A stretch of DNA of 64,000 nucleotides from contig BFEA01000024.1 in NCBI GenBank assembly GCA_003427395.1, positions 4,617,871 through 4,681,870 on the forward strand, written 5' to 3'. Position 1 is the first letter of the stretch, and the number at the start of each line of letters is the position of its first letter. The DNA is from Chara braunii. Its lineage: Eukaryota; Plantae; Charophyceae. Position numbers and translations under genes: made by a program. Below are positions 25,922-64,000 of the stretch, in pieces. Under the pieces are notes generated by a model, which worked only from the letters and a program-made list of their open reading frames with translations, did not search any database and was not told where the DNA came from.

Positions 25922-26129
25922 GAGACTTAGATGTGTTTCAGGGGACGAGTAGGGACTAGACGAGAGAGCGAGGGAGTTGGATGAAGGCAAAGAGATAGCG
26001 TCCGCCATCTCCGGCAAGACCTCCATTCCGGACTCAGGCGTCGTCCTTGCACAACACATGTAGCTCCCCGTAGCGTGGTTTCGTCGCCGCGGCTTCTGGC
26101 CTCCACGGAATGAGTCGCTCGTTGGCGGG

Positions 26130-30680: not shown

Positions 30681-32142
30681 TGTCCGCTTGCGCGGCCCCG
30701 CAGCGCCTACTGGTTTCCCGGGCACCCCCTCCGGTTTACCGTGCCCACCTCTCCTTTCAGCACCAGCGGTCTAAGAAGTACGGACCTTGTCGCCAAGTTG
30801 GCACGATGCAAAGCCCGGATTAGAAGTGTGGGCGGCCCAGTAGCAGTCTCGGGGTGGAACCGTGAAAGATAGCCAGCCCGCGTCGATGCAAGTCCAGAAT
30901 CACGGTGTGAGTGAGCGCAGGGCTGGTCAGGTACCCGAGGCTGAGGAGCGAGCTCAACACTGCTGTGGAAAACGGGCCGCCGCGCCCATAGACCGGACTC
31001 CTCGGGGTTTGGGCTTGACAGGGCTCGGAAGCATGCTCGACACAACAGACCCGAGCCTTTGAAGTTTGGAACATACAAGCTCAGAAACGAACGAACTGAC
31101 GCCTGCCACAAATTGGTTTCAGCGAGCTTCGAAGAGCGCGTGTACGCAGGCTCGAAATCGAGTTCGACTCACAAAGGTTCCTGAGAAGAAGCTGCCACTT
31201 TCAATTATTTATAGTCTAGAACAGACTTGAACAGGTTCAAAAACGAGTTTGACTCCACAGAGCTTCAGAAAACGAAATGCCACCTCCGACTCTTTAAGAC
31301 TTTTGGAACAGACTTGAACAGGTTCAGGCACGAGTTTGACACGACAGGGCTTCGGAAAATGAGATGCCACCTCTGACTCTTTAAAATTTTGGAACAAACT
31401 TGAATGGATTCAGGCACGAGTTTGATGCGACGGGGCTTCAGAAAACGAAATGCCACCTCTGTCTTCCGAGGTTTTGGACAGACTAGGACAGGCTCAAAAA
31501 GGACCTCGACATATTAACTGCCACCTCTGACCCTTTGAGATTATGGGACAAACTTGAACGAGTTTGACACGACAAAGCTTCAGAAAGACGAAATGCCACC
31601 TCTGACTTTCTTTAAAAAATTTGGGATAGACTTGAACAGGTTCAGGCACGAGTTTGACACGATGGGGCTTCGAAAAACGAGATGCCACCTCTGACTCTTT
31701 AAAATTTTGGAACAGACTTGAACGGGTTCAGGCACGAGTTTGACGCGACGGGGCTTAAGAAGACGAAATGCCACCTCTGTCTTCCGAGGTTTTGGACAGA
31801 CTAGGACAGGCTCAAAAAGGACCTCGACATATTAACTGCCACCTCTGACTCTTTGAGATTATGGGACAGACTTGAACGAGTTTGACACGACAGAGCTTCG
31901 GAAAAACGAAATGCCACCTCTGACTTCCGAGGTTTTGGACAGACTAGAACAGGCTAAAAAATGACCTTGACATATTTAAGCTGCAGAAAGCGAAATGCCA
32001 CCTTCGACTCTTTAAAAGCTTGGAACACACTTGAACAGGTTCAGAAAAGAGCTCGGCATATTAAAGCCGCAGAGAACAAAATGGGACCTTCAACTCTTTA
32101 AAAGCTTGGATCTGTCTGGTCAGAGAGCTTCGAAGCGCGAGA
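30681..32142 (-). repeat. Distal part of the 3' LTR (direct repeat of 60881-62023), with internal tandem subrepeats
   Basis: Identity starts exactly at TGTCCGCTTGCG (30681 and 60881) and ends at GAAGCGCGAGA. This copy is ~320 bp longer because of extra subrepeat units. Confidence 0.92.
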
Positions 32143-32143
32143 A

Positions 32144-32668
32144 GAGGTTGAGGGCCGAGGGGTTGAGAGGAGTCTCGAAGTAACTGCAGTTATCTTTGTA
32201 GCACCGGGAGCTTGGACAAAAGTCGTAGTACCCCTGGTCCAAGGACAAGGGGGTGGGCTGGATAGGCTGCTACGAGAGGCAAGAAAAATGCGAAGAGAGT
32301 GGATAGCTGAGGTTCGAAAACGATTTAGGTTTGTGGCTGTAGGAAAGGAGAGGTTCGCGGGGGAGAAAGAACTTCCAAAGGCGTGTTATCCGTTGACTGT
32401 GAGGGTGTTGTCTTTCATATTCCTAGGAACCAACGAAGGGAAAATAGTGAGGCTTCTAGAGAGGGGAAGGAGTTTGGGATTACCCTTTAGGGCCCTGTGG
32501 ACGCTGTATACGCATTGCATCGATCAGGGTATCCCTCCTCGTGGGAAGCTTTGGGGTATTTTTAGGAGATTGGGGTCCCTAGAGAAACCCTTCACTCTTT
32601 CATCAGAAAGATATCGCCAGTGGGTTTTTAAAACGGCGTCGGTAAATGGTGAGGTTCATACTCAGTGA
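32144..32668 (+). CDS. Accessory ORF (family B), C-terminal part; N-terminus displaced to 57849-57787 by the inversion
   Basis: The frame is open back to the breakpoint. LEVTAVIFVAPGAWTKVVVPLVQGQ resembles LEIRATIFLSEDAWTEVWRGLVTGQ, and LYTHCIDQGIPP resembles LYTRCVDAGVPP of the next ORF. Confidence 0.65.
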   Translation, partial: EVEGRGVERSLEVTAVIFVAPGAWTKVVVPLVQGQGGGLDRLLREARKMRREWIAEVRKRFRFVAVGKERFAGEKELPKACYPLTVRVLSFIFLGTNEGKIVRLLERGRSLGLPFRALWTLYTHCIDQGIPPRGKLWGIFRRLGSLEKPFTLSSERYRQWVFKTASVNGEVHTQ

Positions 32669-33245
32669 GAACGGGGCGGTAGAGTCGATAGAGGTCAGTG
32701 ACAAGGGGAAAGTTTTGGTTCCAGGGGACCCTCGTGTGACGCCCTACTGGATGNGCGTTGAGAAAGGCGAGGTCATCCGAGGAGGTGCATACGTGTGGGT
32801 TAGAGCTCGTCGGCTTACCTGGAAGGAAGGAGTGCGGAGAGGAGGCCCCCCTGACCTCGGTCGGTTCCTAGAGATTCGGGCTACGATTTTTCTCAGCGAG
32901 GACGCGTGGACCGAGGTGTGGAGGGGTTTAGTGACTGGGCAAGTGACCCATACGGAGTACCGAGAGTCCGCGAGGCTGGTAGCAAATAACCTGGTGCTGG
33001 CCGATTACGAGGAAGGGACTTTCGAGTCACGGACTCTAGTGTCCTTCGCAGAGCCTGGTGAGGTCCCTCGTGCGTCTGGGGTCCTTCATGCGAACTTACC
33101 CCAATTCTTGACCAACCCATTCTTAAGAGACACGGAGGAAATAGTAGTAATAATACTTAGAGCGGCTCGGGAGTCCAGGGTGCGGGCTAGGGGTTTGTTC
33201 TGGCTCTATACGCGGTGCGTGGACGCGGGGGTTCCCCCGGGCTAG
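32646..33245 (+). CDS. Accessory ORF (family B), unknown function; probably continues by frameshift into the 33215-33415 frame
   Basis: 199 aa. The ATG overlaps the end of the previous ORF. Motifs IFLS.DA and EVPRA are shared with ORFs 57836-58597 and 34704-35276. Confidence 0.65.
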   Translation: MVRFILSENGAVESIEVSDKGKVLVPGDPRVTPYWMXVEKGEVIRGGAYVWVRARRLTWKEGVRRGGPPDLGRFLEIRATIFLSEDAWTEVWRGLVTGQVTHTEYRESARLVANNLVLADYEEGTFESRTLVSFAEPGEVPRASGVLHANLPQFLTNPFLRDTEEIVVIILRAARESRVRARGLFWLYTRCVDAGVPPG

Positions 33246-33312
33246 GAGAGTTGTCTGCCATATTCAGGAGGTTGAGAGAATTTGAGGGGGTCAAACGTCG
33301 TGGACGTCCCGT

Positions 33313-33741
33313 ATGCTCGCCTCTTCGGGGAAGAGCAGGAGACGAACCGGCGTGGGTACGAAGCCCGATGATAAGAGGGGTTCCGGGGACTCTCTGGCGT
33401 CAGTGGAGCCTATAGTAGATACTGGGGAAGTTGTCCTTGTCACTCTACCGAGAGTCAGGTTGAAAGGGCCACCGAGGACCCTCCAGAGAGAAGAAGGGAA
33501 AATCCGACGCGGGAAGGCTTTCGTGCGATTAGCAATGAGTTGCGAGGGGAGAGTAGTGATTGGTGAAGCCCAAATTTTCCTTTCGAAGGAAGGCCTGATA
33601 GAAATAGCAAGGAGCTTGAGGACTGGAAAAGACCCTCTCTGGGACACGCGAGCCGTAAGGAATCGCCTGGAAGAGCTCGTAAAAGAGGTGAAGCCTCGCG
33701 AAGGGTGCCAAGAAAAATATAGAGTGACCTACGGGGGTTAG
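33313..33741 (+). CDS. Accessory ORF (family B-related), unknown function
   Basis: AQIFLSKEG...GKDPL...RVTYGG parallels VEIFLSPDD...GKDPL...RVEYRG in 34704-35276. Confidence 0.55.
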   Translation: MLASSGKSRRRTGVGTKPDDKRGSGDSLASVEPIVDTGEVVLVTLPRVRLKGPPRTLQREEGKIRRGKAFVRLAMSCEGRVVIGEAQIFLSKEGLIEIARSLRTGKDPLWDTRAVRNRLEELVKEVKPREGCQEKYRVTYGG

Positions 33742-34703
33742 GAGGAGATACCTCAGTTCGCCACCAATGAGCCGGTGGGAGTTCCCCGTTTCATCTTTGA
33801 ACGGATCTACCTCTCAGGGTCAAGAGGGCGGTGGGAAGAAGGATTTTCATCCTGAGCCAGTTCCGGTTTACGAGGTCGGACCTCCATTCCTTGCTAACGT
33901 GGTGTTTCCGGGATTCCTATCGAGACGATTGGTCGACTCTAGAGGACTTGGGTTACACCTTTGAAGGGTGGGGTCGACACGCAAGGGAATCTAGGATATC
34001 GTGGAGATACTTGGGTAAGATCTGCGAAGGGGAGTTAGAAAGATTGAACCCCTCGGATCTCATTCGGATCGCGATTGCTTGTCGCCGACGGAAACTAGGG
34101 GATGAGCGAGCCTCACCTTGGCGAACTTGTGGGGTTGGAGAGGGTGAGAGAAGAAGTTCTCCGGATCCTTACTCTATGTTAGGAGGAAGAAAGGAGAGCA
34201 AGGCATAGGTCCCTAGCTAGGATCAAGCTACTGGAGACAACTGCGATCACAATCCTAGACGAGTTAACGATAGATCTTCTCACTCGGCGAGGGGAGAGGG
34301 TATGAGAGCTACGTTCGTCTCCAATAGGATTTGTTGGGAATTGGAGCCTTGCGAAGACGACAACAAGATTCGGGTCAAAGGAGGTCCGCCGGCTGGCCTT
34401 ACGGGAAAAGAAGGATTTGGACCACACTGGCTTTTCGGTTTACATTAGAGACGCAAGTGGGGTGAGGTCCTCAAGGACTTAGAGAGAACCGTTGCTGGAA
34501 GTGGAGAGAAGGTTTGAGGAAGACTCTAGGTATCTAGGAATCCCGCTCGCATCTAGGATACATCTTGTAGAGACCCGATTTTGGGATAGGACGGGAGAGT
34601 ACGAAGGGGCCTTGCGCCAGACGCTGCGCGAGGAAGGAGAGATCGATCGCGCTATGTGTGAGGACTCGCTGGTAGAGGCCGCCGCGAGGTTGGCCGGCGT
34701 GAG

Positions 34704-35276
34704 GTGAGGCCCCCAATGATTAGATACGATAGGGGGAACCCAGTGGGTACGTTAGAGAGGGCTTGGAAATCGGGAGAGAGGTATGGAGTAACCCTCCCCA
34801 TGATTAGAGGGGAAGGAGTGGTGTCTACAAAGTTCTTCAAGATCTACGGGCAAGAGACGGTGGTGCGGTTCTCGGTGGTCTCCAAAGGAGGAAGCCGCAC
34901 TAGGAAGGTTGAGATCTTTCTGTCTCCCGACGACCGACGATTCTTCGCAACCGAGTTAGCGGAGGGGAAAGACCCCCTAGGCATTGCCCGAAAGGCCCTA
35001 GACGGACTGCGGAGATTGAGAGGGGGCGGCACCGAGGGACGCGTGGTTGATCGAGTGGAATACCGAGGTAGGTCAGAAGTTCCAAGGGCGGCTCACGGGA
35101 GGACTTGGGAGATCCCAACCTGGGCCTACCGTCTACTCTACGCCGATGACGCAGCCGTGAGGAGGTTCCGAAATAGGGGACAGGTGATAGAGAAATTTCC
35201 GTTAGGTGAAGAAGGGGGGCACGGACTGTTCACCCAGTGTTGGGAATCGCAAGAAGACACAGACCTCGAGTGGTAG
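34704..35276 (+). CDS. Accessory ORF (family B-related), unknown function
   Basis: 190 aa. The start overlaps the stop of ORF 34492-34707 (GTGA). Contains IFLS, GKDPL and EVPRA motifs. Confidence 0.55.
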   Translation: MRPPMIRYDRGNPVGTLERAWKSGERYGVTLPMIRGEGVVSTKFFKIYGQETVVRFSVVSKGGSRTRKVEIFLSPDDRRFFATELAEGKDPLGIARKALDGLRRLRGGGTEGRVVDRVEYRGRSEVPRAAHGRTWEIPTWAYRLLYADDAAVRRFRNRGQVIEKFPLGEEGGHGLFTQCWESQEDTDLEW

Positions 35277-35585
35277 GCGCTCGTGGAAGAATTCATCAAA
35301 CCCCTGTTTCAGGGGCAACCTGGAGAGGTGGATTGGGCCCTGATCACGCGGTGCTCTCAAGAGGGGGTAAGGGGGGGTTCCGATCTAGAAATCGCCAACT
35401 TAGCCTTAGCAGCCCGTGAAGAAAAGTGAGTAAGGGACTCTTGGTGGACTGTGACTAGCGAGGAGTCAGAAGAAGATAGTGCGATCCAGGAATCAAGTGA
35501 GGGGGAGGGAGACTCAGGGGAAGAAGATGGTTCGGAAGGGAGTGACGATAGTGAGCGGAGCGACTAGAGGATAACGATAGGGTGC

Positions 35586-36990
35586 ATGGAGAGTGAGGTG
35601 GACGTCGGACTCTCTCGTCCACCAGAAACGACTGTGAGAAGGAGTGTCGAGAAGAGCCCCGAGTTAGGAGCTAGGCTAAGTAGGGTGACGAAAGAAATGA
35701 CCGAGGGTATAGAGTCGATAAGCAGGGCTGAGAGGGGCCCAGAAACGGCTTCAGGAGAAAGGCAAGCCTTGGAGGGACAAAGAGGTGGCGCGGGAGTGCG
35801 AGTACATAGGGAGGTGGAGCCGCGAGCGCCGGTGAGAGAAGGGGCATCCGAAGCCCCAAGGCACCTTCCCGTAGAGTCCCGATGGGCGGATCTAGTGGAC
35901 GCCGAAGCGAGGGTAGGAGAAGCTCCATAATTTTCGAGAGATAGGCCAGGGCATCTACCGCCTAAGAGAGAAGAAGAAGGGGGTCCGGATAGATGGGACA
36001 TAAGAAATAAGAGGTCGCCGGAAGCTGGCGGTAGGCCACGAAGGTGGGCTGAAAGGAGCCTCGAGACCGCCTCAGGAGAAAGGCAAGCCTTGGCGGGACA
36101 AAGAGTTAGCGCGGACGTGCGAGTACATAGGGAGGTAGAGCCGCGGGTGCCAGTGAGAGAAGGAACGACCGAAGCCTTGAGGGACCTTCCGGTGGAGTCT
36201 CGATGGGCGGATCTAGTGGAAGCAGAAGCGAGGATGGGAGAAGCACAAGAGTTTTCGAGAGGTAGGGTAGGGTGTCGACCACGTAGGAGGGAAGAAGAAG
36301 GGGGTCCGAATAGAAGGGACCTGAGAGAAGAGAGGTCGGCGGAAGCTGGCGGTAGGCCATGGAGGTGGGCCGAGAGGGAGTCGGATGTTGCATGGGCGCC
36401 CGGAGAGGTGATGGGGAGAAGTCCGGGGGTGGACGCCTGGAGAGGATTTAGGGGACAGGATCCCGCACGGTGGGAGACAGAGTGGCCGAATGAGAGAAGT
36501 CGCTATGGGGAAGAACCATGGGGACCCCCTAGACCCCGACCGCGGGTCGAGGAGCCGGATCCCTCTTGGTACAAGCCGTACGATCCGGTGATTGACGGGC
36601 CTATGGAGGGACCCTATTTCCGCCGTTACGACGACCGACGAGTTCCTTACTACGATGTCAACCTAGGCCTAGAGGCACTTTTCTTCGACGGACGTGATGT
36701 GACGGGATTCGTCAAGAAATGGGAGAGTTATGCTTACCGAAAGAGATTCTCCGAGAAAGAGTGGATAGATCACTTCATCCAGCACTCTGACCCGGAGTTA
36801 GACCCTGCAATCAGGGCTATCTACCCAACAGATGGGCGGTGGAGGACGTTCAAAAGCAGTTTATTACGGACTTTCGTGTGTGATGATTTGATCCCCACCG
36901 TAGAGGGCTTGCATCGTGTCACGAGGGGGGAACGAGAGAGCTTGGTGGCCTTCACCTGGAGGCTCAAGCGCTTGTCCCAAGCCCTAGTGG
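35586..36990 (+). pseudogene. gag, 5' part (in-frame 321-bp tandem duplication, premature stops)
   Basis: FFDGRDVTGFVKKWESY...GRWRTFKSSLLRTF capsid-like region. The HREVEPR...LPVESRWADLV block is repeated at 321-bp spacing. Interrupted at 36991. Confidence 0.75.
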
Positions 36991-39202: not shown

Positions 39203-39439
39203 CCTAGTGGATAGGGGGTTGTTGTCCACCCGTGGTTAATGGACCCCAGAAAATTCGCCGAACTGGACAGCGAAGCTTGTAAACGAAATGTTAGCGAATT
39301 CGTGGTTTTTAAACCTCAATTTGTGCTTTGTGTTCATGAAGACGGAATCCATGTTTGCGAATTCGTGGTTTTTGAAACCCGAAATGTCCATTAATGTGAT
39401 GAACAACTATCTAAAGCCAACCTAGTGTTCTTCGAAATT

Positions 39440-41935: not shown

Positions 41936-42016
41936 CTAAGGGTGTAGGGGGAAGGAAGTGGACGTAATGGCAGAGGAGAAGTTTGGTGCGGTGGCAGGTT
42001 GGACAGATCACCTCTT

Positions 42017-42082
<66 letters not shown>

Positions 42083-48780: not shown

Positions 48781-48884
48781 ATCACTCAATGGATATGTTT
48801 ACCTTTGGTCTACCACATAGAGGACTCTATTCGTTATATATTCGGTGAAAAATATAAGGTCTATTAACCTTTTGTCATGTTGTC

Positions 48885-49740
48885 GGAGGTGGATAGGTGC
48901 GTAATGTTTATGTTGCACCTACCCGAGGAGAAAAGGAAGGAGGTCCTCGGAAATGCCCCAAGAGACTCTGTCAATTTCGAAAAAGTCGCCGAAGTGGTCT
49001 TCACGGGGGAGGAGTGGACGTAAGAGAATACATGAAAGAAACCCTGGACATGACGCTCCGTAATGTCCGCCACGCACGGAACGATGGCCCTAGGGGGAAT
49101 GATAGGCCACCCCCTGGTCCACTTGGTCCACCTGGTCCATGATGGGGAAAACGGCAAACGGGATGGAGAAATGAGTCGGGAAACCAAGGAGGCTGGAGAA
49201 ATGATCGAGAGATGGGAGGAAAACGAGGCCCCGATTGAGTGAATTCTCATTGGAAGGACGCTAGAGATGGAAGGTGGGGAGACACGCCTCAAGTTAGGGT
49301 CATTGGGGCGCGACCTGAGGTCAGGGCTCCCCCACGACCTGCACCGCCGGCTCCCCCTGTGCCTATAGCCGCTGCGATGCAAGGGGGTCCGCGCCCCAAC
49401 AACCTGCAAGCTCGAAGCGGGTGTGTTTACTACAATGAAGAAAGTCACATCAAAAGGGACTGTCCTCTTCTCACGGAGGCCTTAAGGTTGGGGGTGGTCA
49501 AGCTAAATGAAAACAAATGGGTTGAATGGGGAGATGGTGGAGAGGCGGTCTCCTTCTACCCGTCAATGAAGGTGAATGCGGACAAGAGAATAGCCCTCCA
49601 GGAGGCGAGGCTGGGGAAGAACCTGAAACTGGGGGCACCTCCAACTCGTCCCATGTCGAAATGACGGAATCCCCAGGAGGTGTGTCCATTAGGGAACCCC
49701 AGGTGTCCAGCATCAAGTTCGTTGAGACCCAGCCTTAAGA
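48885..49740 (+). pseudogene. gag, 3' part with degenerate CCHC zinc knuckle
   Basis: EVDRCVMFMLHLPEEKRKEVLG continues the 5' part. CVYYNEESHIKRDC matches CX2CX4HX4C with one C-to-Y change. Confidence 0.8.
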
Positions 49741-49804
49741 AGAGGGGCCTTGCCTAAGGGTAAAAACACAGGCTGGGTCCGAGACGTCTAAAAGCCAAGA
49801 GAAC

Positions 49805-52800
49805 GTGGCGGAAAATGGAGGAGGAAGGAGCGGCGACGACGACCAACCAATGGTCGATGCCAAAGTTGCGGAAGAAAAGAAGGAGGAGCCCACTTCACCC
49901 AAATCGCCAAGGATCACGGGGGCGAAAAAGTTCGAAATGAAATGCACCTTGGATGAGATCGACACGGTAGCTCCCCTTAGGAGAACCCTGATGCAGCCTA
50001 TGCAGTGCACACTTCTGGAATACCTAGCAGCCAGCAAAAGCGCTAGGGAAGAACTCCTAAGCATCACGAAGAAGGTAAGAGTCTCGCTCGTCGGAGGACC
50101 CACGGTACCGGGGGAGGGTCCAGCCAAGGAAAAAGTACAGTCCTCCCGAATTATTATGGATGAGCTGCCGACTAACTTCTTCTCGGGGGAGGAGGCCAAA
50201 AAGTTCTATGTATTAGGGAGCGACCAGCTAGAAGCGGTGGTGAGTGAGAAGAAGATGAGGGCTCTGGTAAACAATGGGTCCGAATCCACGGTATGTAGAG
50301 ACTCTATTGCCCGGGAGCTAGGCTTGGAGATAGGTAGGGGGGTATCGATGTCAATGGTCGTAGCGGATAACAAGCTACAACCGGCAGAAGGGGTGTGTCA
50401 CACCCCTGTGATCGAGGTTGCGGGCGTCGAGGCCTCGGTCCCAATATTTTCGGTGAAAGAGTATTCCTCCGAGTTGATCCTCGGTAGAACCTGGCTGAGC
50501 GCGGTTCACGCTACCACGGTTGACTTACCTGATGGAAGTCAGACCCTCTCCATCCAAAGTCCGGATGGAATCCGGGTGGTCCTGAAGACCGTGGACGCGC
50601 AAGATGAGCGGAACCGGACCAACATTCCTAGACGGAAGGGGAACCAATCGAGGGTATGCCAAGTCCGTCTGGAGGAAGCGCTCTTTACGGATAAGGAACC
50701 CCCGGGGGACCGATTAGAGGTCGAAGATGTCGGGGGCAGGATGGTGATCAACGGGATAGGGTACGAAAAGGAGGACGAGGAGGAGGAGTTCAGTGGATGT
50801 GTGAGACTGTCTTTTTTGGAGGAATCCCCCTAGTCGGCGGAATAAAGAACCACAAAACTGTGGCGGAAAAGGTGAAACCCGCCACGGTCAGCCGGGATAA
50901 AACGGGGGAAACTTCGATATCGGAAGAAGAAATCGCCGATATCATCAGGAAATGGAAGGAAACCGAAGGGCAGAGAATTACCGCAGACAGGTTAGCTAAG
51001 ATGGACATAGGGGACGGGAACCTCACGAACAAAGAGAGGGAGTTCGTAACGATGACCCTAAGGGGCTACGACAAGGCCATCGCCTTCGATGACTCGGAAA
51101 GGGGGAGAATCGACCCGAGATATGCTAAGCCAGCCCGGATGCATGCGATTCCTCACGTACCTTAGAAAGATAGACCCCAGTGGAAGTATGCTCAAAAGGA
51201 GAAAGAGGAGATAGTGACATTTATTAAAGAGAAGATAAGGACTTTCGTCGCAGAACCTTGCGAGAGTGCGTACTCTAACAAATGGTTCTTTCTGAGGAAG
51301 GGAGGGAGCGACAAGTTGAGGTGGATCCAAAATCTCCAAAGAACCAACACCGTGACCATAAGGGGCGTAGGGTCCATACCTGAAGCAGTTCTACTCACTG
51401 AAGGATCGGCTGGCCGCTCAATCTACTCAATCTGCGACCTCTTTTCGGGGTATGATAAGATTCCCTTGGACTACCGGGATAAGCACATGACCGCCATGCA
51501 TACGCCTTTGGGACTGGTCCAAATGATGGTGGTACCAATGGGGTGGACGAACGACGTGGCGGTGTTCCAAAGAGCCATGATTGCGGTCCTCAAGGAATTC
51601 ATACCTAGAAGGGTGAAAGTCTTTCTTAACGACTTCCCGATAAAAGGGTCAGTCGAACGGAATGAGACAGAGGTCTTTCCCGGGGTAAGAAAGTTCGTAG
51701 TGGGCCACATGAGCAATGTCAGGGATGTCCTGGTGAAATTAGACGATGCCAACCTTACGGTGAGCGGAACTAAGAGTCGCTGGGGCGTGTCGTCCATCAA
51801 GATATTGGGTTTCATTTGCGACAAGGATGGGCGGAGGCACGATCCCGGGGAATTAGAGAAATTGATGACCTGGCCATCGGCGCTCAAGTCGATAACGGAA
51901 GTTAGGCAGTTTCTAGGGGTGGTGGGCTACTGGAGGATCTTCATAAAGGCCTACGGTGAGAAAGCGGAACCCCTTAAACGACTCCTTAGGAAATCGGGAG
52001 GATGGATTTGGGGGGAGGAGCAGGCCGCGGCCATGGAAGCCCTAAAAGAGGAATTCCGCGAAGGTTGGCAGGTCCTACGAGTTCCGTTCTTCGAGGACGA
52101 GGAGTATCGCCCATTCATAGTTTCTACGGACGCGGGGCCTTACTCGTTAGGGGGCCTCTTATCTCAAAAGGATGGAGCAGGGAAGGAGAGACCGTTACGG
52201 TTCGAGAGTAGGACCTTGAACCCCGCTGAGCGAAATTATAGCCAGTTCAAAAAGAAAGTATTGGGAGTGTTGCATTGCCTGAAGGCCTTCAGCCATTACA
52301 TATACGGGCGACAATTTCTCCTAAGGGTTGACCCCACCGTAGTGGCAACAATCCTTCAAAAGGACTTCTCATTGACCAATCCGACCATCGCTCGGTGGAT
52401 GATACATATTAGACTACGATTATAGGGTCGAGAGGGTATCCGGGACCAAAAACCAGGTTGAGGACGGGTTGTCCCGACTTCCCATCCGGGAAGAGGACCT
52501 ACCTAAGCTCGAGAAAGTGACATTGTCGATGGCCAAGGGGGAGGTAATCCAAGTAGCGGCTAATAGGGTACAAGTGGCAGTACCCATCCGGGGAGAGGGG
52601 GGGACTCATAGAACCTTCCTCGCCAATCTCTACGACGGGAAGTACCGGGACATAGGGCTGTATTTAGCCGGTAGGGAGAGAGGGACCGAGAGAATCCAGC
52701 AAGAGGCGCTAAGATATTGCCTGCGAGGTGACCATCTCTTTAAGAGACCGACCAAGTTTGCGATTCTCATGAGAGTGTTGTGCGATCCAGAGGAAAGAAG

Positions 52801-53870
52801 AGCGATCATAGAGGAGCTGCACGATGGGGTCGTCGGGGTCATAGAGGGGTAAAGGGGACCTTCGATAAAGCCTGTAGGCTCTATTGGTGGGACTGGCAGT
52901 ACGCGGAGGTCGAAAGGTATTGCTCGACCTGCGAAGCTTGCCAAAAAAGGGCTACCGTTCGCTACAAGGAGCCCCTAGTTCCGTCACTACCCACAGTTCC
53001 GGGCGAAAAGGTCCACGTTGACTTGGTAACCATGCCTAAAGGAGTCGGGGGACTCCGGTACATAATCAACTTCCGTGACGATCTCACTGGATTCGTGGAG
53101 GCGAAGGCCATTAAGAAAAAGACGGTCGAGGAGGTGAGTGACTTTCTCCTAGAATACATCGTTAGTTACGGGTGTGTCGGAAAGATAGTCATGGATAGGG
53201 GGGCGGAATTTTTGAGCCAAAAGGTCAAGACATTGTTGGAAAAAACAGGAATCAGGGCGGTTTATACAACCGCCTATCACCCTCAAAGCAATGCGCCGGT
53301 AGAGAGAGGTCACCAAACGCTTGTAGATGCCCTGGCAAAATGGTGCAAGGGTCGCGCAGAGCAATGGCCGAAGTATTTGCGGTACGCGGTTTGGGCCGAC
53401 AACATCACAGTCAAATCAAGCACGGGATACCCCCCTTACACCCTTTGGTTCGGTAGGCATTGTCCCCTGCCCATCGAGTTCCACGTCGACACTTGGACAA
53501 GTGTCTCATGGAAACCAACATGACCAGGTGTGAGCTGTTGGGGGCCCGGATATGGCAAATAGCAGTAAATCTGGACGTCGGACTTACAGAGGCGGAAGCA
53601 AACATCGAGAAAGCGAGGGTGAAAGGGAAAGAAAGGTGGGACAAAAATCTACGGGTCCGACGAACGCCGATAAGGATTAACGACCTAGTTTTAATGTACG
53701 ATTCATCGTTAGAGAAGACCTGGAGCCGAAAATTGGCAAACTGATGGATGGGGACGTATAGGGTCCTAAAGAGATTGGATGAGAGGGCTTACATGCTCGC
53801 TGAATTAGATGGGAGTAGGCTACGGGACCCTATCGCGGGGGCTCGTCTCAAAATCTTCCGATCGAGAGGG
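49805..53870 (+). pseudogene. pol: aspartic protease, RT, RNase H, integrase (stops, frameshifts, catalytic D-to-N changes)
   Basis: ALVNNGSES...LILGRTWL; DLFSGY...PMGWTN...FLNDFPIKG; STDAGP...ERNYSQ; LHDG...H...YWW...CSTCEAC, HVDL, MDRGAEF, PVERGH; WMGTYRV. No chromodomain or additional RNase H seen. Confidence 0.95.
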
Positions 53871-54618
53871 ACCCTTGGGGAGGAGCCGAAGCGGGAAGAG
53901 AAGGAAGTTATTGACACGGAAGTGGCCGTTACCTACGAAAAGGGGGAGACCTCCAATCAAGGGGCCTCTTCTCGACCACCAAAGAGGGGGTTTAAGGTTC
54001 GAAAACTTACCCTACCAAAGACCCATGGAAAGAAGAAACGAACCAGAGAGGATGACGGTGACACAGACCGGTTAGAAAAATGCAGGCTAAGAGAAAGAAG
54101 GAACACCTCAAGGAAAACCTTGAGAATCAAACGGGAGAGAGAAGAGAGAAAACGAAAAAGGGAGAGGCGCGAGAAGAGGATGAGGAGACGGAAACGGGGA
54201 TAGAGTCGCTTGAGGAGAAAAGGGAGAGTGATGTACCATAGTCAGAGAAACATGTGTAGTACCATGGTTAGAGGGGACACGGATCCGAAAGAAAGAATGT
54301 ACCATAGTTAGAGAAACATGTGTCATGGGAGCAACGAGTCGTAACCCCAAAGGAGATATTGTACCATTGTTAGAAACGACCAGTGTCCCGGGGAGGGGTG
54401 CGCCGTGTGTCATGAAGAGTGCCGTAACTAGGCGATACGGTTAAGACTGGTAGGAAAGAAAAGGCGACCGTAATCTAACCGGAGGGTATGGGATGAAACC
54501 AACCATGGGAAAATGAGAGATACCTTCCCACGGTAACAATTGGGTGAGGGGCAAAGGTCAAAAAAGAAGGCTACGGGAATGCTCGCTCGAGACGGCGAGA
54601 AATGGGGTGTGGGCTGGT

Positions 54619-57600
54619 TGTCGGGCGACTGTCTACCAGCCGAAGACTTTTTTCTTTGAAAATAAAAAACGTTTTTTTTCCTTTTTTGCTGTTTTTGCGT
54701 GGTTTTGACGTATACATGCATGTGGATGTGGTGGTTAAGGATGTCCTTGGGCGTCCGAGTCTTCATAGTAACCCTTCGGCTGGCTGGTGTGGCTGTTCAA
54801 ACCTTGGTCGCAAGCTCGAGCACGCGGATCCCAAAGATCGGGGTTTCAGAGCCAAAACCAGAGAGCTGGGGGATGGTGGCCAGCCTGGAGACAGGTTATC
54901 AAAAATTTGGAAGGAGGGGACCTAAGGAAGGCAGGGGTGGACTACAATGGGCGGCATGTAATACTATGGCCGGGCACGACGAAGGCTGGTTACGCACGGC
55001 CGGAGGACTGCGGTTAAAGGAAGGAGGTGTCAAGCGGGACAGTCTGAGGCGAGCCGGAGAAGCACCAAGGACAGACGAGCTAGCCAGCGACAAGGAACTG
55101 ATCCAGGGGGGGAAGGAAAACTGCCTCACCCGTCGGCTGATCCCAGATGGGGCCAGGGTCGAGGAAACATGATGACAAAGAGCCGCGACCATGGGCCGGG
55201 CAGAAAGGGGGTCGAATCGAGAACTCGCACTGATGAAACCCGGGAGAAAAGGATAGAAAATGGGGGCCTCGACCACAGAAACGAAATGAGATCATTGGAA
55301 CGAAATCGGCCTGCACCAGGTGATCCGAGGATCTTCATGAGGCGGCTTCGTAACAGGGGTCAATTGCAAGGGCAATGCCAAGCTGGAAGGGAAAGAGCCG
55401 GCCAGGTGCGAGCTCGGCGAGCGAAGGCGAACGGACTAGCTCTGATGCAAGCACTCCAAGAACAGAAAAAGTGAACCGACAGACGAGAGTGCTAATGTAC
55501 CATGATCGAGGAATCGGCCAGGTGCACGCTCGGCGAGCGAAGGTAAACGGACTGGCTCTAATGCGAGCACTCCAAGAACAGAAAAAACGAACCGACTGAC
55601 GAGAGTGCTAATATACCATGATCGAGGAATCGGCCAGGCGTGCGCTCGGCGAGCGAAGGCGAACGGGCTGGCTTTGATGCGAGCACTCCAAGAACAGAAA
55701 AAGTGAACCGACTGACGAGAGTGCTAATGTACCATGATCGAGGAATCGGCCAGGTGAGCGCTNNNNNNNNNNNNNNNNNNNNNNNNNNNNNNNNNNNNNN
55801 NNNNNNNNNNNNNNNNNNNNNNNNNNNNNNNNNNNNNCGAGGAATCGGCCAGGTGAGCGCTCGGCGAGCGAAGGCGAACGGACTGGCTTTGATGCGAGCA
55901 CTCCAAGAACAGAAAAAGTGAACCGACTGACGGGAGTGCGAATGTACCATGATCAAGGAATCGGCCGGGTGCGAGCTCGGCGAGCGAAGGCGAATGGACT
56001 GACTCTGATGAGAGCACCCCAAGAACAGAGAAAGCAAACCAACTGACGAGAGTGTGAATGAACCAGCCAGGTGCACGCTCGGCAAGCGAATGTGAACGGA
56101 CTGATACAAGTGAACCAACTGACGAGAGTGCGAATGTGTCGTGATCAAAGAGTCGGCCAGGTGCGAGCTCAACAAGCAAAGGAGAACGGGCTGGCTCGAG
56201 TGCGAGCAACAAACGGGGCGAACGGCTCGACAGGTGTGCGAACATACCTAGATCGGAAATCGGCCAAATGCAAATTAATCCAGCAGAAGAGTAGACTGTT
56301 TTGGGTAGAACCGAGGTCAGGGAACGAGCCCCATGCAAGGTTGCTAAACGTGGGGAGGGAGATGAACGGGCAGTCCGGAGTGAGAGCGCGACCAAGATAG
56401 AAGGGAGCCAAGAAGCAAGAGAGCTTACGTCGAGATTAGGCTAAAACATGCAGAAGCGGAGAAACGCGCGCATAACCGGCGCAGTGACCAGGCAAGGAGG
56501 GGTTAGGACGGATCGCGGGTAAGAAGCGGGAAAGTATGGAAAATTTGGCGGATCGCCGGCGGGGATGCACGAAGAGAAGAGCGGGAAACTATGAAAAATT
56601 TTATGAACTATTGGCGGGTGACCGAGTGAGATTGAAGAGTGGTATGATTGGCAGAAGCGAAGGAGCGAGGATCGGAGCGAGGGGAAGAGAGAGGGATAGT
56701 GAGAATATATAAGGAAGAGAGCGGAGGAAGAGAAAAAAGGGGGGGGCGTACGAAGAAGGGGAACGCACGGGTCGAACGCCCGATAGAATCAGCGATCGGA
56801 GGCAGGAAGCGGCGGCTCTCCGGAGGGGCAGCGTTCGAGGGTTCGCGAGAAAGTTGTGCACCAGAGTAGCGAGGCGTGCGTGCCTCCGTGCCAGCGTCCG
56901 AGCAGGCAGACCAGGGAGACAGCGGCTCCTTGGGGTCAGAGTCGGGGAGCAAGAAGAGCGGACGTTAGCAGTTGGTGGAGGGACAGAGCAGAAAAAGTGA
57001 ACGAGAAGAGGCGGTGCGCGCGAGCGCGTCTTCTAGCCGAGACTAGCGCTCAATACGCACTCGCTCGAGAAAGAGAGAGAGGGAGAGAGAGAAAGAAAAA
57101 TGAGAGAGAGAGAGCGAGAGAAAGAGAGAGAGAAAAAAAAAAAGAGTGAGAGAGAGAGCGAGAGAAAAAGAGAGAGAGAGAGAAAGAGAGAGTGAGAGAG
57201 AGAGCGAGAAAAAGAGAGAAAGAGGGAAAGAGAGAGTGAGAGAGAGAGCAAGAGGAAGAGAGAGAGAGAGAGCGAGAAAATGAGAGAAGGAGAGTGAGGG
57301 AGGAAGGGGGAGGTTTCCTTCTCGAAAGGAGGGGGGGAGTTGGCGAGCTCTCGTGGCGAGGCTGCGAAGGGAGGTGATGGCGAAGTAGGTCTGGTGGTCA
57401 TGAGGTGATCCTTAAGGGAAGCGTCGGCCGGGCACTCGAGCGAGAGGTGGGGGCAAAAGGGCCGATGTTCGATAGCGTCGGCCACTGAGCCCTGCCGCGG
57501 GTGGGACTCACGAGGGACGTCAGCTGGAAGGATAGTCAGGGGACAGTAGTCTGGGCACCACTTTTGTTGCCTCGTCAGCGGTGGCGAGATTGCGCTCTCA

Positions 57601-57786
57601 TTGGTAAATCGAGTCTGCTGCTTCGATTCTCTTTCGGTGTGATGTTAGTGCATTTCCCTTCTCTCTCTGGACAACTATCACATGTCAAGCTACATTACAG
57701 TCTGAAAGTTTAAATTTCGTTGTTCCCCTGTCCCCTCCCTCCGCAATCTGATCGAGCCGCCCCGCGAAGGGAAGAGTTGGCGAGGG
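54619..57786 (+). repeat. Proximal part of the 3' LTR (inverted relative to the 5' LTR), with a 116-bp tandem array at ~55400-56160
   Basis: Starts TGTCGGGC after G-rich AATGGGGTGTGGGCTGGT. 56020-57786 is the reverse complement of 64000-62092. The start position is supported by homology with 1855. Confidence 0.85.
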
Positions 57787-57835
57787 GCTCTCACCGCCTT
57801 CTAAGGAGGATTCGACGAAGCGTCCCAGGTCTCTA

Positions 57836-58597
57836 TCAAGGAACACCATTCATTCTAAAACATTTTTTGGGGCACTCCGAAGACCCTTTTGTAGCCGTAA
57901 TCTTGTCCGCCCTCGCGGTCCCGAGTCGATTCCTTAAAGATTCCCACACGAATCCTGCAAGCTTTAATTCTGTACGGTACTGGGTTATCCACGCAGTATG
58001 TGTAGTACCAATGGAGCGACCTAAATGATAGATGCCACCCCCTTCCCGCACTATGGACCGCACAACCTTCTCGTACCGCTCCTCCTTTCCGCTTACCCTC
58101 CGGAAAACGAAGGATGGAAATATGGCCTTGACGCACCCCGTGGCGCGAGGGTACTCCTCGTCTCGAGCGCAAGTCACCCGCACCTCGATCGGTGGGCAGT
58201 AGCGAAGGGGCTCCGCCTCAAAGAGCTGCCTCAGAATCAGACCCGCTCGAGTCTCCCAATGATCCGCACGGTACCAACCTAGGACCAAGTTAGTGACGTA
58301 ATATACTCTGGCCTCCCTACTCAGATAGACCGTTCCTTCTGCACGGACCACTGTTCGTCGAGGCCTCTTTCCGTTCTGGGGCCTATTCCGAGAGCACCTG
58401 TCCCCCTCCCAAGTTCCTACTGCGAACCGCGCCCAAAGGAAAACCCCCTTCTCTAGCTCTAATCCTCTCTCGCGACCGGCCAGATATCTCTCAGTGCGAT
58501 GATCTAAGGGAACGGTAAAGCACTCCCTGTCCTTGCTTAGATCCACCTTCTCGATTTGAACCCCCTCCTCGTCAGTACCTTCTATGATCCTAACCAT
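57836..58597 (-). CDS. Accessory ORF (family B), 253 aa, unknown function
   Basis: MVRII..., GVFLWARF..TWEG, GTVYLSREA and EEYPRATG align with MVRFI..., GAYVWVRA..TWKEG, ATIFLSEDA and GEVPRASG of 32646-33245. Confidence 0.7.
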   Translation of the reverse strand: MVRIIEGTDEEGVQIEKVDLSKDRECFTVPLDHRTERYLAGRERGLELEKGVFLWARFAVGTWEGDRCSRNRPQNGKRPRRTVVRAEGTVYLSREARVYYVTNLVLGWYRADHWETRAGLILRQLFEAEPLRYCPPIEVRVTCARDEEYPRATGCVKAIFPSFVFRRVSGKEERYEKVVRSIVREGGGIYHLGRSIGTTHTAWITQYRTELKLAGFVWESLRNRLGTARADKITATKGSSECPKKCFRMNGVP

Positions 58598-58955
58598 TCC
58601 CCTCGACTATCTCCTCGATGATTTGAACTAGTGTTCTCCAACCGTCCGAACCGTCAAGGTACGCCTCCGGAGTAGTAGGGGCAGGCCGCTCCCCTCGCAA
58701 GTACGTCCGATACCCTAGCGAGTAGAAGTACTTAATCTCGTAGGCTCCCAGCAGTTCCCTCTCGAGCTGCGTGTGATTGACAGCTTCTTCCCAACTATCC
58801 GAAAAGCCTGCCCCTCTATCTGCACCCTCTTCTATATACAAAGCTATGTCGAAATCGCCAGTCCACCAGTAAAAATTGTAGCACCACATGTCCACTCCTC
58901 CTCGATCACCCACACTAATCCCCGCAAGTTCAACTTCTAGAGCCCTCAAACTCAT
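58590..58955 (-). CDS. Accessory ORF (family A), 121 aa, unknown function
   Basis: Paralog of the adjacent ORF (WEEA...YE.KYFYSLGYRTY.RG.RPAP...AYLDGSDGWR.L). ATGA start/stop overlap at 58955-58952. Confidence 0.7.
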   Translation of the reverse strand: MSLRALEVELAGISVGDRGGVDMWCYNFYWWTGDFDIALYIEEGADRGAGFSDSWEEAVNHTQLERELLGAYEIKYFYSLGYRTYLRGERPAPTTPEAYLDGSDGWRTLVQIIEEIVEGNG

Positions 58956-59270
58956 GGAGTTGCCGCTCTCACTATTCTCTCTACGACCCCTATTAGCACC
59001 CTCCAGCCGTCCGATCCGTCGAGATAGGCGTCCGAAACTACCGGGGCGGGGCGACCTCCCCTGGGGTAGGTTCGGTAACCTAAAGAGTAAAAATATTTAA
59101 ATTCATAGCCCCTCAACTCCCCCCTTGCACCGCGAGAGTGACCTATCGCTTCTTCCCATCCACGAAGGAAATCCTCCCCTTGTCCATAGTCGAAATGTGT
59201 AGCACCATACGTCAATATCCCCGCTCGTACACACGCTAATCCATTCCGGGACGGTTTCTAAGCTCATGCA
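58952..59270 (-). pseudogene. Accessory ORF (family A), frameshifted paralog
   Basis: The C-terminus lies in the 58952-59215 frame. The N-terminal ISVCTSGDIDVWCYTF (compare ISVGDRGGVDMWCYNF) lies in another frame. The 5' boundary is approximate. Confidence 0.65.
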
Positions 59271-59877
59271 ATATAATCAAAAAATTCTTCCACTTTCTTT
59301 TGGCCACTCGAGAGACTACCTCTATCCTGCAAGGAGAAGATGCCTGTGAGCTCAGAAGGATCAAATGGACCAGAGAAGGAACGTCGTCCCACTCGGCTAC
59401 CTTCCTGTCCTCCCCCGCTGAGAGGCCCCTTCCCACTCCTGGTACAGAGACTAGCCGCGGACATAGGTTATCCTCGAGGAAGGGTGGCAACCCCCTCCCC
59501 GGAGTCGGACCAAAGTCACACACCCGGGCCCTATGTCCCCCATTGAACCGACCCCTAGTCCTAAGTTAGCCTAACCGGTACCACGTCCCTACTCGGCCCA
59601 CCTCGAGCGTGGAATTACCCAGGTCCCAGGACTTTAATCCACCTATAAATCAAGAATCACTAGCCTACCTAGTCCCACCCCATTCTCCTTCTCTCATCAG
59701 GAACTCTTCATGCTTCGTTCGCACCTTCCATCTCGCCACCGTCTGACTCTTTTCTCTCTTCGAATCTCAAGACTTTGATCGGGGTCCTCAAAGAAAAGGT
59801 GAGGAGAGTAGAGATAATCAAGAGAAGCACTCAGGTTTATCGTTTTTGATTACGTACCTCGTAGTCTTTGCCTCCTT

Positions 59878-60858: not shown

Positions 60859-60877
60859 ATCCCTGGCAACGGCGCCA
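60859..60877 (-). promoter_or_regulatory. Primer-binding site for tRNA-Asp
   Basis: The minus strand reads LTR-ACA-AGT-TGGCGCCGTTGCCAGGGAT. This is complementary, with one mismatch, to the plant tRNA-Asp 3' end ...ATCCCCGGCAACGGCGCCA (recalled sequence). Confidence 0.85.
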
Positions 60878-60880
60878 ACT

Positions 60881-63800
60881 TGTCCGCTTGCGTGGCCCCG
60901 CTGCGCCTACTGGTTTCCCGGGCGCCCCCTCCGGTTTACCGTGCCCACCTCTCCTTTCAGCACCAGCGGTCTAAGAAGTAAGGCCCTTGTCGCCAGGTTG
61001 GCACGATGCAAAGCCCGGATTAGAAGTGTGGGCGGCCCAGTAGCAGTCCCGGGTTGAAACCGCGAAAGATAGCCAACCCGTGTCGATGCAAGTCCAGAAT
61101 CGCAGTGCGAGCGAGCGCAGGGCTGGTCAGGTACCCAAGGTTGAGGAGCGAGCTCGGCACTGCTGTGGAAAACGGGCCGCCGCGCCCATAGACCGGACTC
61201 CTCGGGGTTTGAGCTCGACAGGGCTCAAAAGCGGGCCCGACACAACAGACCCGAGCCTTTGAAGTTTGGAACAGACAAGCTCAGAAACGAACAAACTGAC
61301 GCCTGCCACAAACCGGTTACAGCGAGCTTCGAAGAGCGCATGTACGCAGGCTCGAAATTGAGTTCGACTCACAAAGGTTCCTGAGAAGAAGCTGCCACTT
61401 TCAATTCTTTATAGTCTGGAACAGACTTGAACCGGTTTAGAAACGAGTTTGACTCCACAGAGCTTCAGAAAATGAAATGCCATCTCCGACTCTTTAAGAT
61501 TTTTGGAACAAACGTGAACAGGTTCAGGCACGAGTTAGACACGACGGGACTTCGAATAACGAGATGCCACCTCTGACTCTTTAAAATTTTGAAACAGACT
61601 TGAACGGGTTCAGGCACGAGTTTGACGCGACGGGGCTTAAGAAGACGAAATGCCACCTCTGTCTTCCGAGGTTTTGGGCAGACTAGGACAGGCTCAAAAA
61701 GGACCTCGACATATTAACGACCACCTCTGACTCTTTGAGATTATGGGACAGACTTGAACGAGTTTGACACGACAAAGCTTCGGAAAAATGAAATGCCACC
61801 TCTGACTTCCGAGGTTTTGGACAGACTAGAACAGGCTAAAAAACGACCTTGACATATTTAAGCTGCAGAAAGCGAAATGCCACCTTCGACTCTTTAAAAG
61901 CTTGGAACAGACTTGAACAGGTTCAGAAAAAAGTTCGGCATATTAAAGCCGCAGAGAACGAAATGGGACCTTCAACTCTTTAAAAGCTTGGATCTGTCTG
62001 GTTAGAGAGCTTCGAAGCGCGAGAGTGGGCCGAGCTCGGAAACGAGCCAACTCTCGTAAAAGTTACGGCCCTCTCCCTTCCTCCTCTCCCTCCCTCGCCA
62101 ACTCTTCCCTTCGCGGGGCGGCTCGATCAGATTGCGGAGAAAGGGGACAGGGGAACAACGAAATTTACACTTTCAGACTGTAATGTAGCTCGACATGCGA
62201 TAGCTGTCCAAAGAGAGAAGGGAAATGCACTGACATCACACCGAAAGAGAATTGAAGCAGCAGACTCGATTTACCAATGAAAGCGCAATCTCGCCACCGC
62301 TGACGAGGCAACAAAAGTGGTGCCCAGACTACTATCCCCCGACTATTCTTCCAGCTGACGTCCCTCGTGAGTCCCACCCGCGGCAGGGCTCAGCGGCCGA
62401 CGCTATCGAACATCGGCCCTTTCGCCCCCACCTCTCGCTCGAGTGCCCGACCGACGCTTCCCTTAAGGATAACCTCATGACCGCCAGACCTACTTCGCCA
62501 TCACCTCCCTTCGCAGCCCCGCCAGGAGAGCTCGCCAACTCCCCCCCTCCTTTCGAGCAGGAAACCTCCCCCTTCCTCCCTCACTCTCCTTCTCTTGTTT
62601 TCTCGCTCTCTCTCTCTCTTCCTCTTGCTCTCTCTCTCACTCTCTCTTTCCCTCTTTCTCTCTTTTTCTCGCTCTCTCTCTCAATTTATTTTTTTTTTCT
62701 CTCTCTCTCTCTTTCTCTCACCTTCTCTCTCACTCTCTCTTTCTCTCTCTCTCTCTTTCTCTCGCTCTCTCTCTCCTNNNNNNNNNNNNNNNNNNNNNNN
62801 NNNNNNNNNNNNNNNNNNNNNNNNNNNNNNNNNNNNNNNNNNNNNNNNNNNNNNNNNNNNNNNNNNNNNNNNNNNNNNNNNNNNNNNNNNNNNNNNNNNN
62901 NNNNNNNNNNNNNNNNNNNNNNNNNNNNNNNNNNNNNNNNNNNNNNNNNNNNNNNNNNNNNNNNNNNNNNNNNNNNNNNNNNNNNNNNNNNNNNNNNNNN
63001 NNNNNNNNNNNNNNNNNNNNNNNNNNNNNNNNNNNNNNNNNNNNNNNNNNNNNNNNNNNNNNNNNNNNNNNNNNNNNNNNNNNNNNNNNNNNNNNNNNNN
63101 NNNNNNNNNNNNNNNNNNNNNNNNNNNNNNNNNNNNNNNNNNNNNNNNNNNNNNNNNNNNNNNNNNNNNNNNNNNNNNNNNNNNNNNNNNNNNNNNNNNN
63201 NNNNNNNNNNNNNNNNNNNNNNNNNNNNNNNNNNNNNNNNNNNNNNNNNNNNNNNNNNNNNNNNNNNNNNNCGCCCCCCCCTTTTTTCTCTTCCTCCGCT
63301 CTCTTCCTTATATATTCTCACTATCCCTCTCTCTTCCCCTCGCTCCGATCCTCGCTCCTTCGCTTCCGCCAATCAGACCACTCTTCAATCTCACTCGGTC
63401 ACCCGCCAATAGTTCACAAAATTTTTCATAGTTTTTCGCTATTCTCTTAGTACATCCGCGCTGGCGATCCGCCAAATTTTCCATACTTTCCCGCTTCTTA
63501 CCCACGATCCGTCCTCACCCCTCCTTGCCTGATCACTGCACCGGTTATGAGCGCGTTTCTCCGCTTCTGCATGTTTTAGCCTAGTCTCGACGTAAGCTCT
63601 CTTGCTTCCTAGCTCGCTTTTGTCTTGGTCGTGCTCTCACTCCGGACTGCCCGTTCATCTCCCTCCCCACGTTTAGCAACCCTGCATGGGGCTCGTTCCC
63701 TGACCTCGGTTCTACCCAAAACAGTCTGCTCTTCTGCTGGAGTAATTTGCATCCGGACGATTTTCGATCTAGGTACGTTCGCACAATTGTCGATCTGTTC

Positions 63801-64000
63801 GCCCTGTTTGTTGCTCGCACTCGAGCCAGCCCGTTCTCCTTCGCTTGCCGAGCTCGCACCTGGCCGGCTCTTTGATCACTGCACATTCGCACTCTCGTCA
63901 GTTGGTTCGCTTGTATCAGTCCGTTCACCTTCGCTTGCCGAGCGTGCACCTAGCTGGTTCATTCACACTCTCGTCAATTGGTTTGCTCTCTCTGTTCTTG
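60881..64000 (-). repeat. 5' LTR (partial, continues beyond the window)
   Basis: Ends ...CAAGCGGACA next to the PBS and is homologous to both pieces of the 3' LTR. TATA-like TATATAA at 63314-63308 (56706-56712 in the other copy). Confidence 0.9.

Follow-up and report, generated by a model that had tools for sequence, protein, structure and literature searches.

To our knowledge, LTR retrotransposons normally place gag first and carry one or two extra open reading frames (ORFs) at most. Ogre, for instance, has an ORF1 upstream of gag. Retrosat2, RIRE3 and RIRE8 have an ORF0 in that position (PMC3485330), and non-chromovirus elements of very large size, with LTRs of 5 kb, are known (PMC6317226, PMC9289625). 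Among plant pararetroviruses, RTBV and the badnaviruses possess AUG-free ORFs I and II, which serve leaky scanning to the polyprotein (PMC5902531), and in one badnavirus ATGA overlaps occur alongside the AUG-free ORFs (PMC5799344). CaMV uses TAV-driven reinitiation (PMC5902531), and in the termination-reinitiation of caliciviruses, influenza B and SART1 stop and start lie within ~20-30 nt of each other (PMC10275272).

The window, that is, the whole 64,000-nt stretch of Chara braunii DNA analysed here, contains one Ty3/gypsy LTR retrotransposon of ~23 kb, which is high-copy and nuclear. As read from the sequence, its gag is preceded by about eight separate, tightly packed and tandemly duplicated accessory ORFs belonging to two paralogue families, A and B. 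As in RTBV and the badnaviruses (PMC5902531, PMC5799344), the small accessory ORFs stand before the polyprotein, are joined by ATGA or other short overlaps, are largely cleared of internal AUG and mostly have weak starts. Those viruses have two such ORFs over ~900 nt, whereas the Chara element has ~8 over 4.9 kb; unlike them, it is an integrase-bearing LTR element with an uncleared first ORF. It is not a member of the Caulimoviridae, which have neither integrase nor LTRs and use a tRNA-Met primer-binding site (PBS), whereas the Chara element has integrase, LTRs and an Asp-type PBS.

Long LTRs, large size and sense accessory coding sequence of no known family before gag-pol are shared with Retrosat2/RIRE3/RIRE8 and Ogre, but these have one extra ORF where the Chara element has two paralogue families arrayed in tandem. 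The tRNA-Asp PBS, the long LTRs and the fact that no second RNase H or chromodomain was found resemble Athila/Calypso (FIDEL, PMC2844528; REXdb, PMC6317226). In contrast to that group, the accessory ORFs lie 5' of gag, and no env-like ORF follows the integrase, as the frame ends at 54203 and the polypurine tract (PPT) begins at 54212. Unlike in Tat/Ogre, no pol piece gave a match to a second (archaeal-type) RNase H, a weak distinction in a decayed copy. With caliciviruses, influenza B, SART1 and CaMV, the element shares stops and starts within ~20-30 nt, some of them ATGA; it differs in that we found no TURBS-like core at the expected distance and no TAV homologue, and in an AUG clearance that those systems do not need.

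Anatomy of the element

The order of the element is LTR, PBS, leader, A1, A2, B1, B2, B3, B4, D, B5, gag-PR-RT-RH-INT and LTR. In the window its inner part (32143-57786) stands in inverted orientation, one break falling within ORF B2 and the other within the 3' LTR, and we infer how the pieces join from the related proteins P0006 and P0011, LTR matches, CA ends, PBS and PPT. The inversion is either a real rearrangement or an assembly error. Relatives of the P series are predicted, spliced gene models, the internal joins of which are no evidence. The segments 56020-57786 and 62092-64000, taken at one point for terminal inverted repeats, were dropped as such when P0006 revealed the inversion.

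The visible part of the 5' LTR (60881..64000, minus strand) starts outside the window, contains an N gap (62778-63271) and ends ...CA at 60881; it is 94% alike to 56020-57786 (inverted) and 90-95% to 30682-32142. A TATA-like TATATAA (63308..63314, minus) is a candidate promoter, with a copy at 56706 (plus). The PBS of tRNA-Asp type (60859..60877, minus) follows the CA end and matches the FIDEL PBS (PMC2844528) in 18 of 19 letters. A PPT (54212..54228, plus) followed by TG, to 54230, probably marks the start of the 3' LTR, the first part of which lies in the inverted segment (54229..57786, plus; assigned by LTR matches) and the last part at 30682..32142 (minus), ending ...CA with no PBS beyond. 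The LTRs differ by 5-10%, and the copy is old, with many private breaks. They also contain tandem repeats of 86-87 bp and 116 bp and, downstream of the TATA-like box, a long GA microsatellite (31219-32110, 55399-56065, 61417-61661).

A non-coding block (59305..59625, minus) has the highest summed contig depth, 4,300-8,600, several-fold above the ORFs. It may be common to deleted derivatives or related families, for example as a packaging or splicing signal. Two ATGs that this copy has within the block, at 59543 and 59464, are lacking in ~97-98% of the other copies by depth. Folding of the leader segment 59268-59650 shows nothing unusual (z -0.37), and no shunt hairpin was seen there.

The first part of gag (35586..36989, plus) has a candidate ATG 18 nt past the B5 stop, in the same frame, and is 68-74% alike to P0006 and P0011. 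The rest of gag, protease, RT, RNase H and integrase, all decayed, occupy 48877..54203 (plus), with Pfam matches in PR-RT-RH-INT order at 49850-53520 and an upstream gag-like region that matches P0006/P0011. P0006 runs through D, B5, gag and protease, spanning a ~12 kb insertion in gag (36990-48876). The insertion includes arrays of 80-82 bp repeats in inverted orientation (39455-41937, 44674-48730) along with two N gaps, and is possibly a DNA transposon with subterminal repeats. A 321-bp tandem duplication (35568-36377, plus) covers the N-terminal part of gag and is likewise present in P0006 and P0011. Elsewhere in the window, a second, unrelated gypsy pol (24270-27857, minus), which served as a control, has a weak PHD-finger match between RNase H and integrase (E 0.022, below the cut-off), and 7590-7745 (minus) matches the N-terminus of P0009 (48%), an ORF of another repeat family.

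Accessory ORFs and their junctions

ORF A1 (58952..59267, minus) starts at ATG 59267 and is a paralogue of A2 (59% identity over 71 aa). It has ~119 aa in longer copies; the window copy is 44 nt shorter and frameshifted at 59181, where contigs show a joint with 45 letters for 1. At the longer length, present in two contigs among those listed, A1 is a whole paralogue of A2 (58590..58955, minus; 121 aa). ORF B1 (57855..58597, minus; ~247 aa) has a frameshift near 58042. ORF B2 is cut by the inversion into its first 21 codons (57787..57849, minus; loose ends at 57789) and the remainder (32143..32668, plus; 72-75% alike to P0004, P0006 and P0011); the B2 Met is also where P0006 and P0011 begin, and both continue into the ORF at 32144. 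P0004 stops ~30 codons short of the B2 stop of the window, either through decay or because the junction at 32646 genuinely varies. ORF B3 (32646..33371, plus) is 73% alike to P0007, its end being placed tentatively across breaks near 33240-33290. ORF B4 (33368..34208, plus), with a probable start in an ATGA overlap and several breaks, is 27-29% alike to B5 and P0001-3. ORF D (34302..34707, plus), with ATGA at its start and broken in this copy, is 72% alike to residues 216-324 of P0006. ORF B5 (34716..35567, plus) has an acidic tail and is 68-70% alike to P0001-3, which end at the equivalent stop; P0005 starts at the same Met. Two stops inside B5 are absent from P0001-3, and a stop in D is not shared with relatives either. 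Ahead of D, a frame of ~67 codons (34102-34305, plus) of helix-like sequence, interrupted by one stop, runs up to the ATGA that opens ORF D; it may be a ninth small ORF or the shifted end of B4.

The B paralogues are 25-31% alike and start Met-Val or Met-Ile. In other copies B2, B3, D and B5 are conserved at 68-75%, which together with selection on B1 (below) shows that these ORFs are coding. A profile of five B pieces recovered 11 related proteins, nine of them Chara braunii gene models. P0008, P0009 and P0010 represent a related Chara gypsy family in which each gene model has, ahead of gag, three B-like repeats that start M-x-R/L-W. Word-based protein searches had given no match for the shifted B1 frame or for A2 (near or longer lengths), weak negatives given that the profile search afterwards found the 11 B relatives; no search of any kind found relatives of the A family. 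The A and B profiles do not align to each other. Sequence searches of Pfam, PHROGs and PDB gave no family for any accessory ORF, including no plant mobile domain (the matches that one search gave derive from pol parts of the aligned gene models), atlas searches with the accessory proteins gave no usable match, and scans of genome, viral and metagenome contigs yielded no loci. AlphaFold models are of low confidence (mean pLDDT 35.6 for A2 and 47.5 for B5, whose core of three strands and two helices reaches 50-70). Foldseek with an accessory model returned nothing at E<=0.001, and a best VIA Z of 5.3 to KH domains, which spans a low-confidence part of the model, was not trusted. Two further ORF candidates were rejected: an 'ORF0' before A1, the ATG of which is missing from most copies in a region that takes small indels, and a 180-aa ORF (60420-59878), which is unsupported and has indels in other copies. 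By analogy with retroviral accessory genes (PMC7264820), our best guess is that the accessory ORFs are directed at the host or have a regulatory function.

The letters of the five junction motifs described in the initial annotation are all present, but two of the motifs, at 57849 and 34704, had been misread. The ATGA overlap at 58955 (A1 to A2, -4 nt) and the ATGGTTAG overlap at 58597 (A2 to B1, -8 nt) are real and join homology-supported ORFs, and ATG 32646 lies inside the end of the upstream ORF (B2 to B3, -23 nt), as claimed. The overlap at 57849, in contrast, is an artefact of a 253-aa upstream frame that is shifted near 58042; the stop that matches the paralogues is TAG 57857-57855, 5 nt before the ATG. 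The supposed '...NG' end of the upstream ORF at this junction goes with the shifted frame. At 34704 the GTG of the GTGA is in frame, but the start that matches both the paralogues and P0005 is ATG 34716, 8 nt past the stop of D. The AATGGT context of the B starts reflects an inherited Met-Val start, and '...NG' is what these letters give when read in a different frame; the suggestion that the context was inherited through tandem duplication agrees with the paralogy of the B ORFs and their MV/MI starts.

With B1 to B2 at +5, D to B5 at +8 and B5 to gag (35586) at +18, all eight junction spacings lie within 23 nt (-23 to +18), two of them resting on the probable ATGA starts at 33368 and 34302. 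The closeness itself is not random: the probability of meeting an ATG of a given frame at -25..+20 nt from an arbitrary position is p=0.17, and six of six homology-supported junctions fall inside that range, although paralogous junctions are not independent of one another. The motifs as such are easily come by, for on the sense strand of the element 45 of 147 ATGs are ATGA and 7 of 147 AATGGT.

We compared the junctions with contigs from four DNA runs (two samples, one study, possibly the source of the window itself), so that they represent further copies in the genome rather than an independent study. Three of the 16 pieces listed bridge 58955 without gaps (80-82% alike; two perhaps one copy), and one of the 16 bridges 58597 without a gap (86% alike). 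For both junctions these copies reveal the frame offsets, not the ATG and stop letters; the listing covers 16 pieces, with 3807 more beyond it, and 40 of 594 differences. At 57849, 10 of the 11 bridging pieces listed have no gap; 13 contigs with loose ends at B1/B2 have one letter fewer, with a stop still there, 4 nt before the ATG. Conservation across copies thus extends to the frame offsets at 58955 and 58597, but the spacing at 57849 varies by a letter. The kept offsets support the initial view of separate accessory ORFs in a nuclear retroelement, rather than decay of one fused frame.

The reading frame at the end of B1 is likewise clear from other copies. Contigs have one extra letter at 58042-58043, where further contigs are clipped; the version of the window has a depth of ~10 there, against several hundred to thousands summed. 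A C-terminal motif common to B2 and B3 sits in another B1 frame, past the break near 58042. Of 59 differences 40 are listed, and 33 of these, at 32 sites, fall in 57858-58041. In the paralogue frame, 19 of the 24 sites polymorphic in other copies are third positions (p=5.5e-6) and 18 of 25 changes are synonymous (28% expected), whereas in the frame read initially three of 24 are third positions and one change is a stop. The end of B1 is under purifying selection in the paralogue frame. None of the listed differences touches the B2 ATG or the TAG.

AUG clearance and candidate splice acceptors

The array is strongly, though incompletely, cleared of AUG on its sense strand from A2 to the gag start (ATG 35586). 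Its 13 segments (4647 nt) contain 11 out-of-frame ATGs against 29.4 ± 4.0 in shuffles that preserve amino acids and codon usage, and none of 2000 synonymous-codon shuffles was as low. From A2 to B2 (1158 nt) there are none, against 6.2 ± 1.9. In gag-pol of the same element, by comparison, 68 out-of-frame ATGs are found against 60 in shuffles, and antisense ATGs in the array number 26 against 25.8. A1 is not cleared (5 ATGs against 4.0 in shuffles); its omission from the clearance is a choice made post hoc. ATG ranks second of 64 trinucleotides in scarcity in the array and 61st in gag-pol.

The depletion extends to residues and codons. The array has 8 internal Met (0.51%) against 41 (1.88%; p=2e-4), and the second gypsy pol of the window is not depleted. 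His, Asp, Asn and Tyr codons of the array tend not to end in T when G follows (9:34, compared with 59:65; p=0.002), and TG is avoided after codons that end in A (4/68 against 355/1481, p=2e-4); both avoidances are absent in gag-pol and the second gypsy pol. B-type stretches in eight proteins of other copies add up to 1528 aa with 3 Met; the gag-protease of P0006 has 20 in 793. In the related family Met is normal (P0008 23/599, P0009 27/484, P0010 20/524). The decayed window copy retains 21 internal ATGs, some of which are missing from other copies (59106; residues at 32288, 34654 and 34800). Other copies lack three ATGs of the window copy yet gain two, at 57822 and 57839, among 71 listed differences. 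Graded by the start-context rule, seven of the nine starts have a pyrimidine at -3 and a weak context (p=0.04); the exceptions are B1, which is strong, and D.

Between the TATA-like box and 59328 there are 20 ATGs, and five more lie inside A1. Because of these 20 ATGs, plain scanning from the LTR cap seems unlikely. A candidate 3' splice acceptor at 59327..59343 (minus), in the block of highest depth, would leave 59 AUG-free nt before A1. Acceptors were scored with a home-made version of the acceptor consensus, defined after the A1 site was seen. Among 1444 AG sites, 59327 and 32606 share the top score (14) and precede A1 and B3. Acceptor-like sites (score >=12) lie 39-124 nt upstream of six of the nine starts, a position with p of 0.007-0.016 (0.02-0.06 without A1). 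The array (4587 nt) holds 13 such sites and gag-pol (6450 nt) four; enrichment over shuffles reaches p ~0.04 in three of four settings and is absent in one, and gag-pol shows none. No good site lies within 130 nt of B2, B5 or gag (scores 8-9), and some sites fall in the conserved motifs YFYSLG and IFR, which yield such letters anyway. All five internal ATGs of A1 are upstream of the acceptor-like site at 59080. ATG density does not differ significantly after and before acceptor-like sites (p=0.22), and clearance also holds before them: with A1 left out, 3289 nt contain 12 ATGs (3.6 per kb), compared with 117 in 6725 nt (17.4 per kb). Splicing alone is therefore insufficient to account for the clearance. 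No splice donor was pinned down in the element sequence. RNA sets X5 and X6 gave 3 and 135 aligned reads, nearly all less than 95% alike and on both strands, with no listed joint. A mix of spliced entry points and scanning past them is predicted to fit best.

Translation of the array

We lean towards a reading in which the accessory ORFs are reached by leaky scanning through the AUG-cleared array past weak starts, likely on spliced or shortened RNAs. The AUG-rich front would be unscannable, and ribosomes would probably enter after splicing at acceptors, for example at 59327 for A1 and at 59080 for A2 onward. Each weak start would capture a share of the ribosomes and the remainder would scan onward. 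Passing eight starts would leave little for Gag, which speaks against scanning; extra entry points are predicted to be needed, and the further acceptor-like sites could serve as such, sparing the late ORFs and Gag-Pol from starvation. The overlaps would reflect compaction and inherited junctions, with reinitiation a helper at most. They do not single out reinitiation, because a badnavirus pairs ATGA overlaps with AUG-free ORFs.

The acceptor-like sites could also point to nested monocistronic mRNAs, in which the leader is spliced to, or transcription starts at, a dedicated site for each ORF, as in complex retroviruses. The sites before six of nine starts, their paucity in gag-pol, the position of the two best before A1 and B3, and the location of all A1 ATGs before the A2 site are consistent with such a scheme. 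We nevertheless regard it as unlikely: whole ORFs are cleared, including the parts before acceptors and whole B proteins elsewhere, good sites are missing ahead of B2, B5 and gag, and several sites lie in conserved amino-acid motifs. Less probable still is coupled termination-reinitiation on a polycistronic RNA, whether cis-driven, as in caliciviruses and SART1, or transactivated, as in CaMV, which had been proposed as the mechanism. It would take ribosomes beyond the AUG-rich A1 without splicing, all eight spacings of at most 23 nt are within the reinitiation range (PMC10275272), and ATGA is found at 58955 and, probably, at 33368 and 34302. AUG clearance on one strand, however, is not predicted by it, the spacings are mixed, and the 57849 overlap is an artefact with a spacing that differs among copies. 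The 18S-complementary TURBS core, TGGGA, is absent within 87 nt of all nine starts, including the expected 40-87 nt upstream; it occurs at 97 and 104 nt in two of nine starts (background 21%), the first being changed in most other copies. Nor did Pfam give a TAV-like match for any accessory ORF, although the structure models are too poor to tell.

A single polyprotein that decay has split up, or that programmed frameshifting would join, is a very improbable source of the ORFs. The age of the copy and its private breaks would suit decay, and two B-like repeats are continuous in P0008 and P0010, which are spliced gene models. Against it stand the gap-free frame offsets that other copies preserve at 58955, 58597 and 57849, the Met starts shared by P0005, P0006 and P0011, and the end of P0001-3 at the B5 stop; fusion by frameshifting was rejected in view of in-frame stops 1-4 codons before the ATG at A1, B1, B2 and B3. 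We give equally little credence to AUG scarcity as a compositional or mutational by-product, with overlaps as plain compaction and nothing to do with translation. The signal withstands shuffles that preserve amino acids and codon usage as well as dinucleotide correction, is strand-specific and halts at the gag start. CTG is mildly depleted as well (p=0.004), and the paralogues share a history, so that segments are not independent, but they are only 20-31% alike. Leaky scanning with spliced entry remains our preferred reading. More speculatively, and less likely than not, the element may run a nine-cistron programme like that of complex viruses, in which Gag-Pol comes last and not from genomic RNA, an acceptor ladder and leaky scanning over up to 4.6 kb set the doses, and the B ORFs form an expanding host-directed array.

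Single extra ORFs before gag are already known. Our literature search, which did not extend to the Chara genome and Ogre splicing papers that may mention the family, found no such array and no leaky scanning in an LTR retrotransposon. One REXdb supplement file has no match to the Chara element, and the accessible portion of PMC12786077 contains nothing on accessory arrays or leaky scanning in LTR retrotransposons. A survey that counts only extra ORFs of at least 250 codons (PMC6317226) would overlook most ORFs of the array with that cut-off; strand-specific AUG clearance would offer a simple screen for hidden accessory ORFs in other elements. A and B are two unnamed protein families, and the array could provide a direct test of the reach of leaky scanning. 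If the preferred reading is true, a nuclear retrotransposon would have arrived independently, and on a larger scale, at the polycistronic strategy that plant pararetroviruses use.
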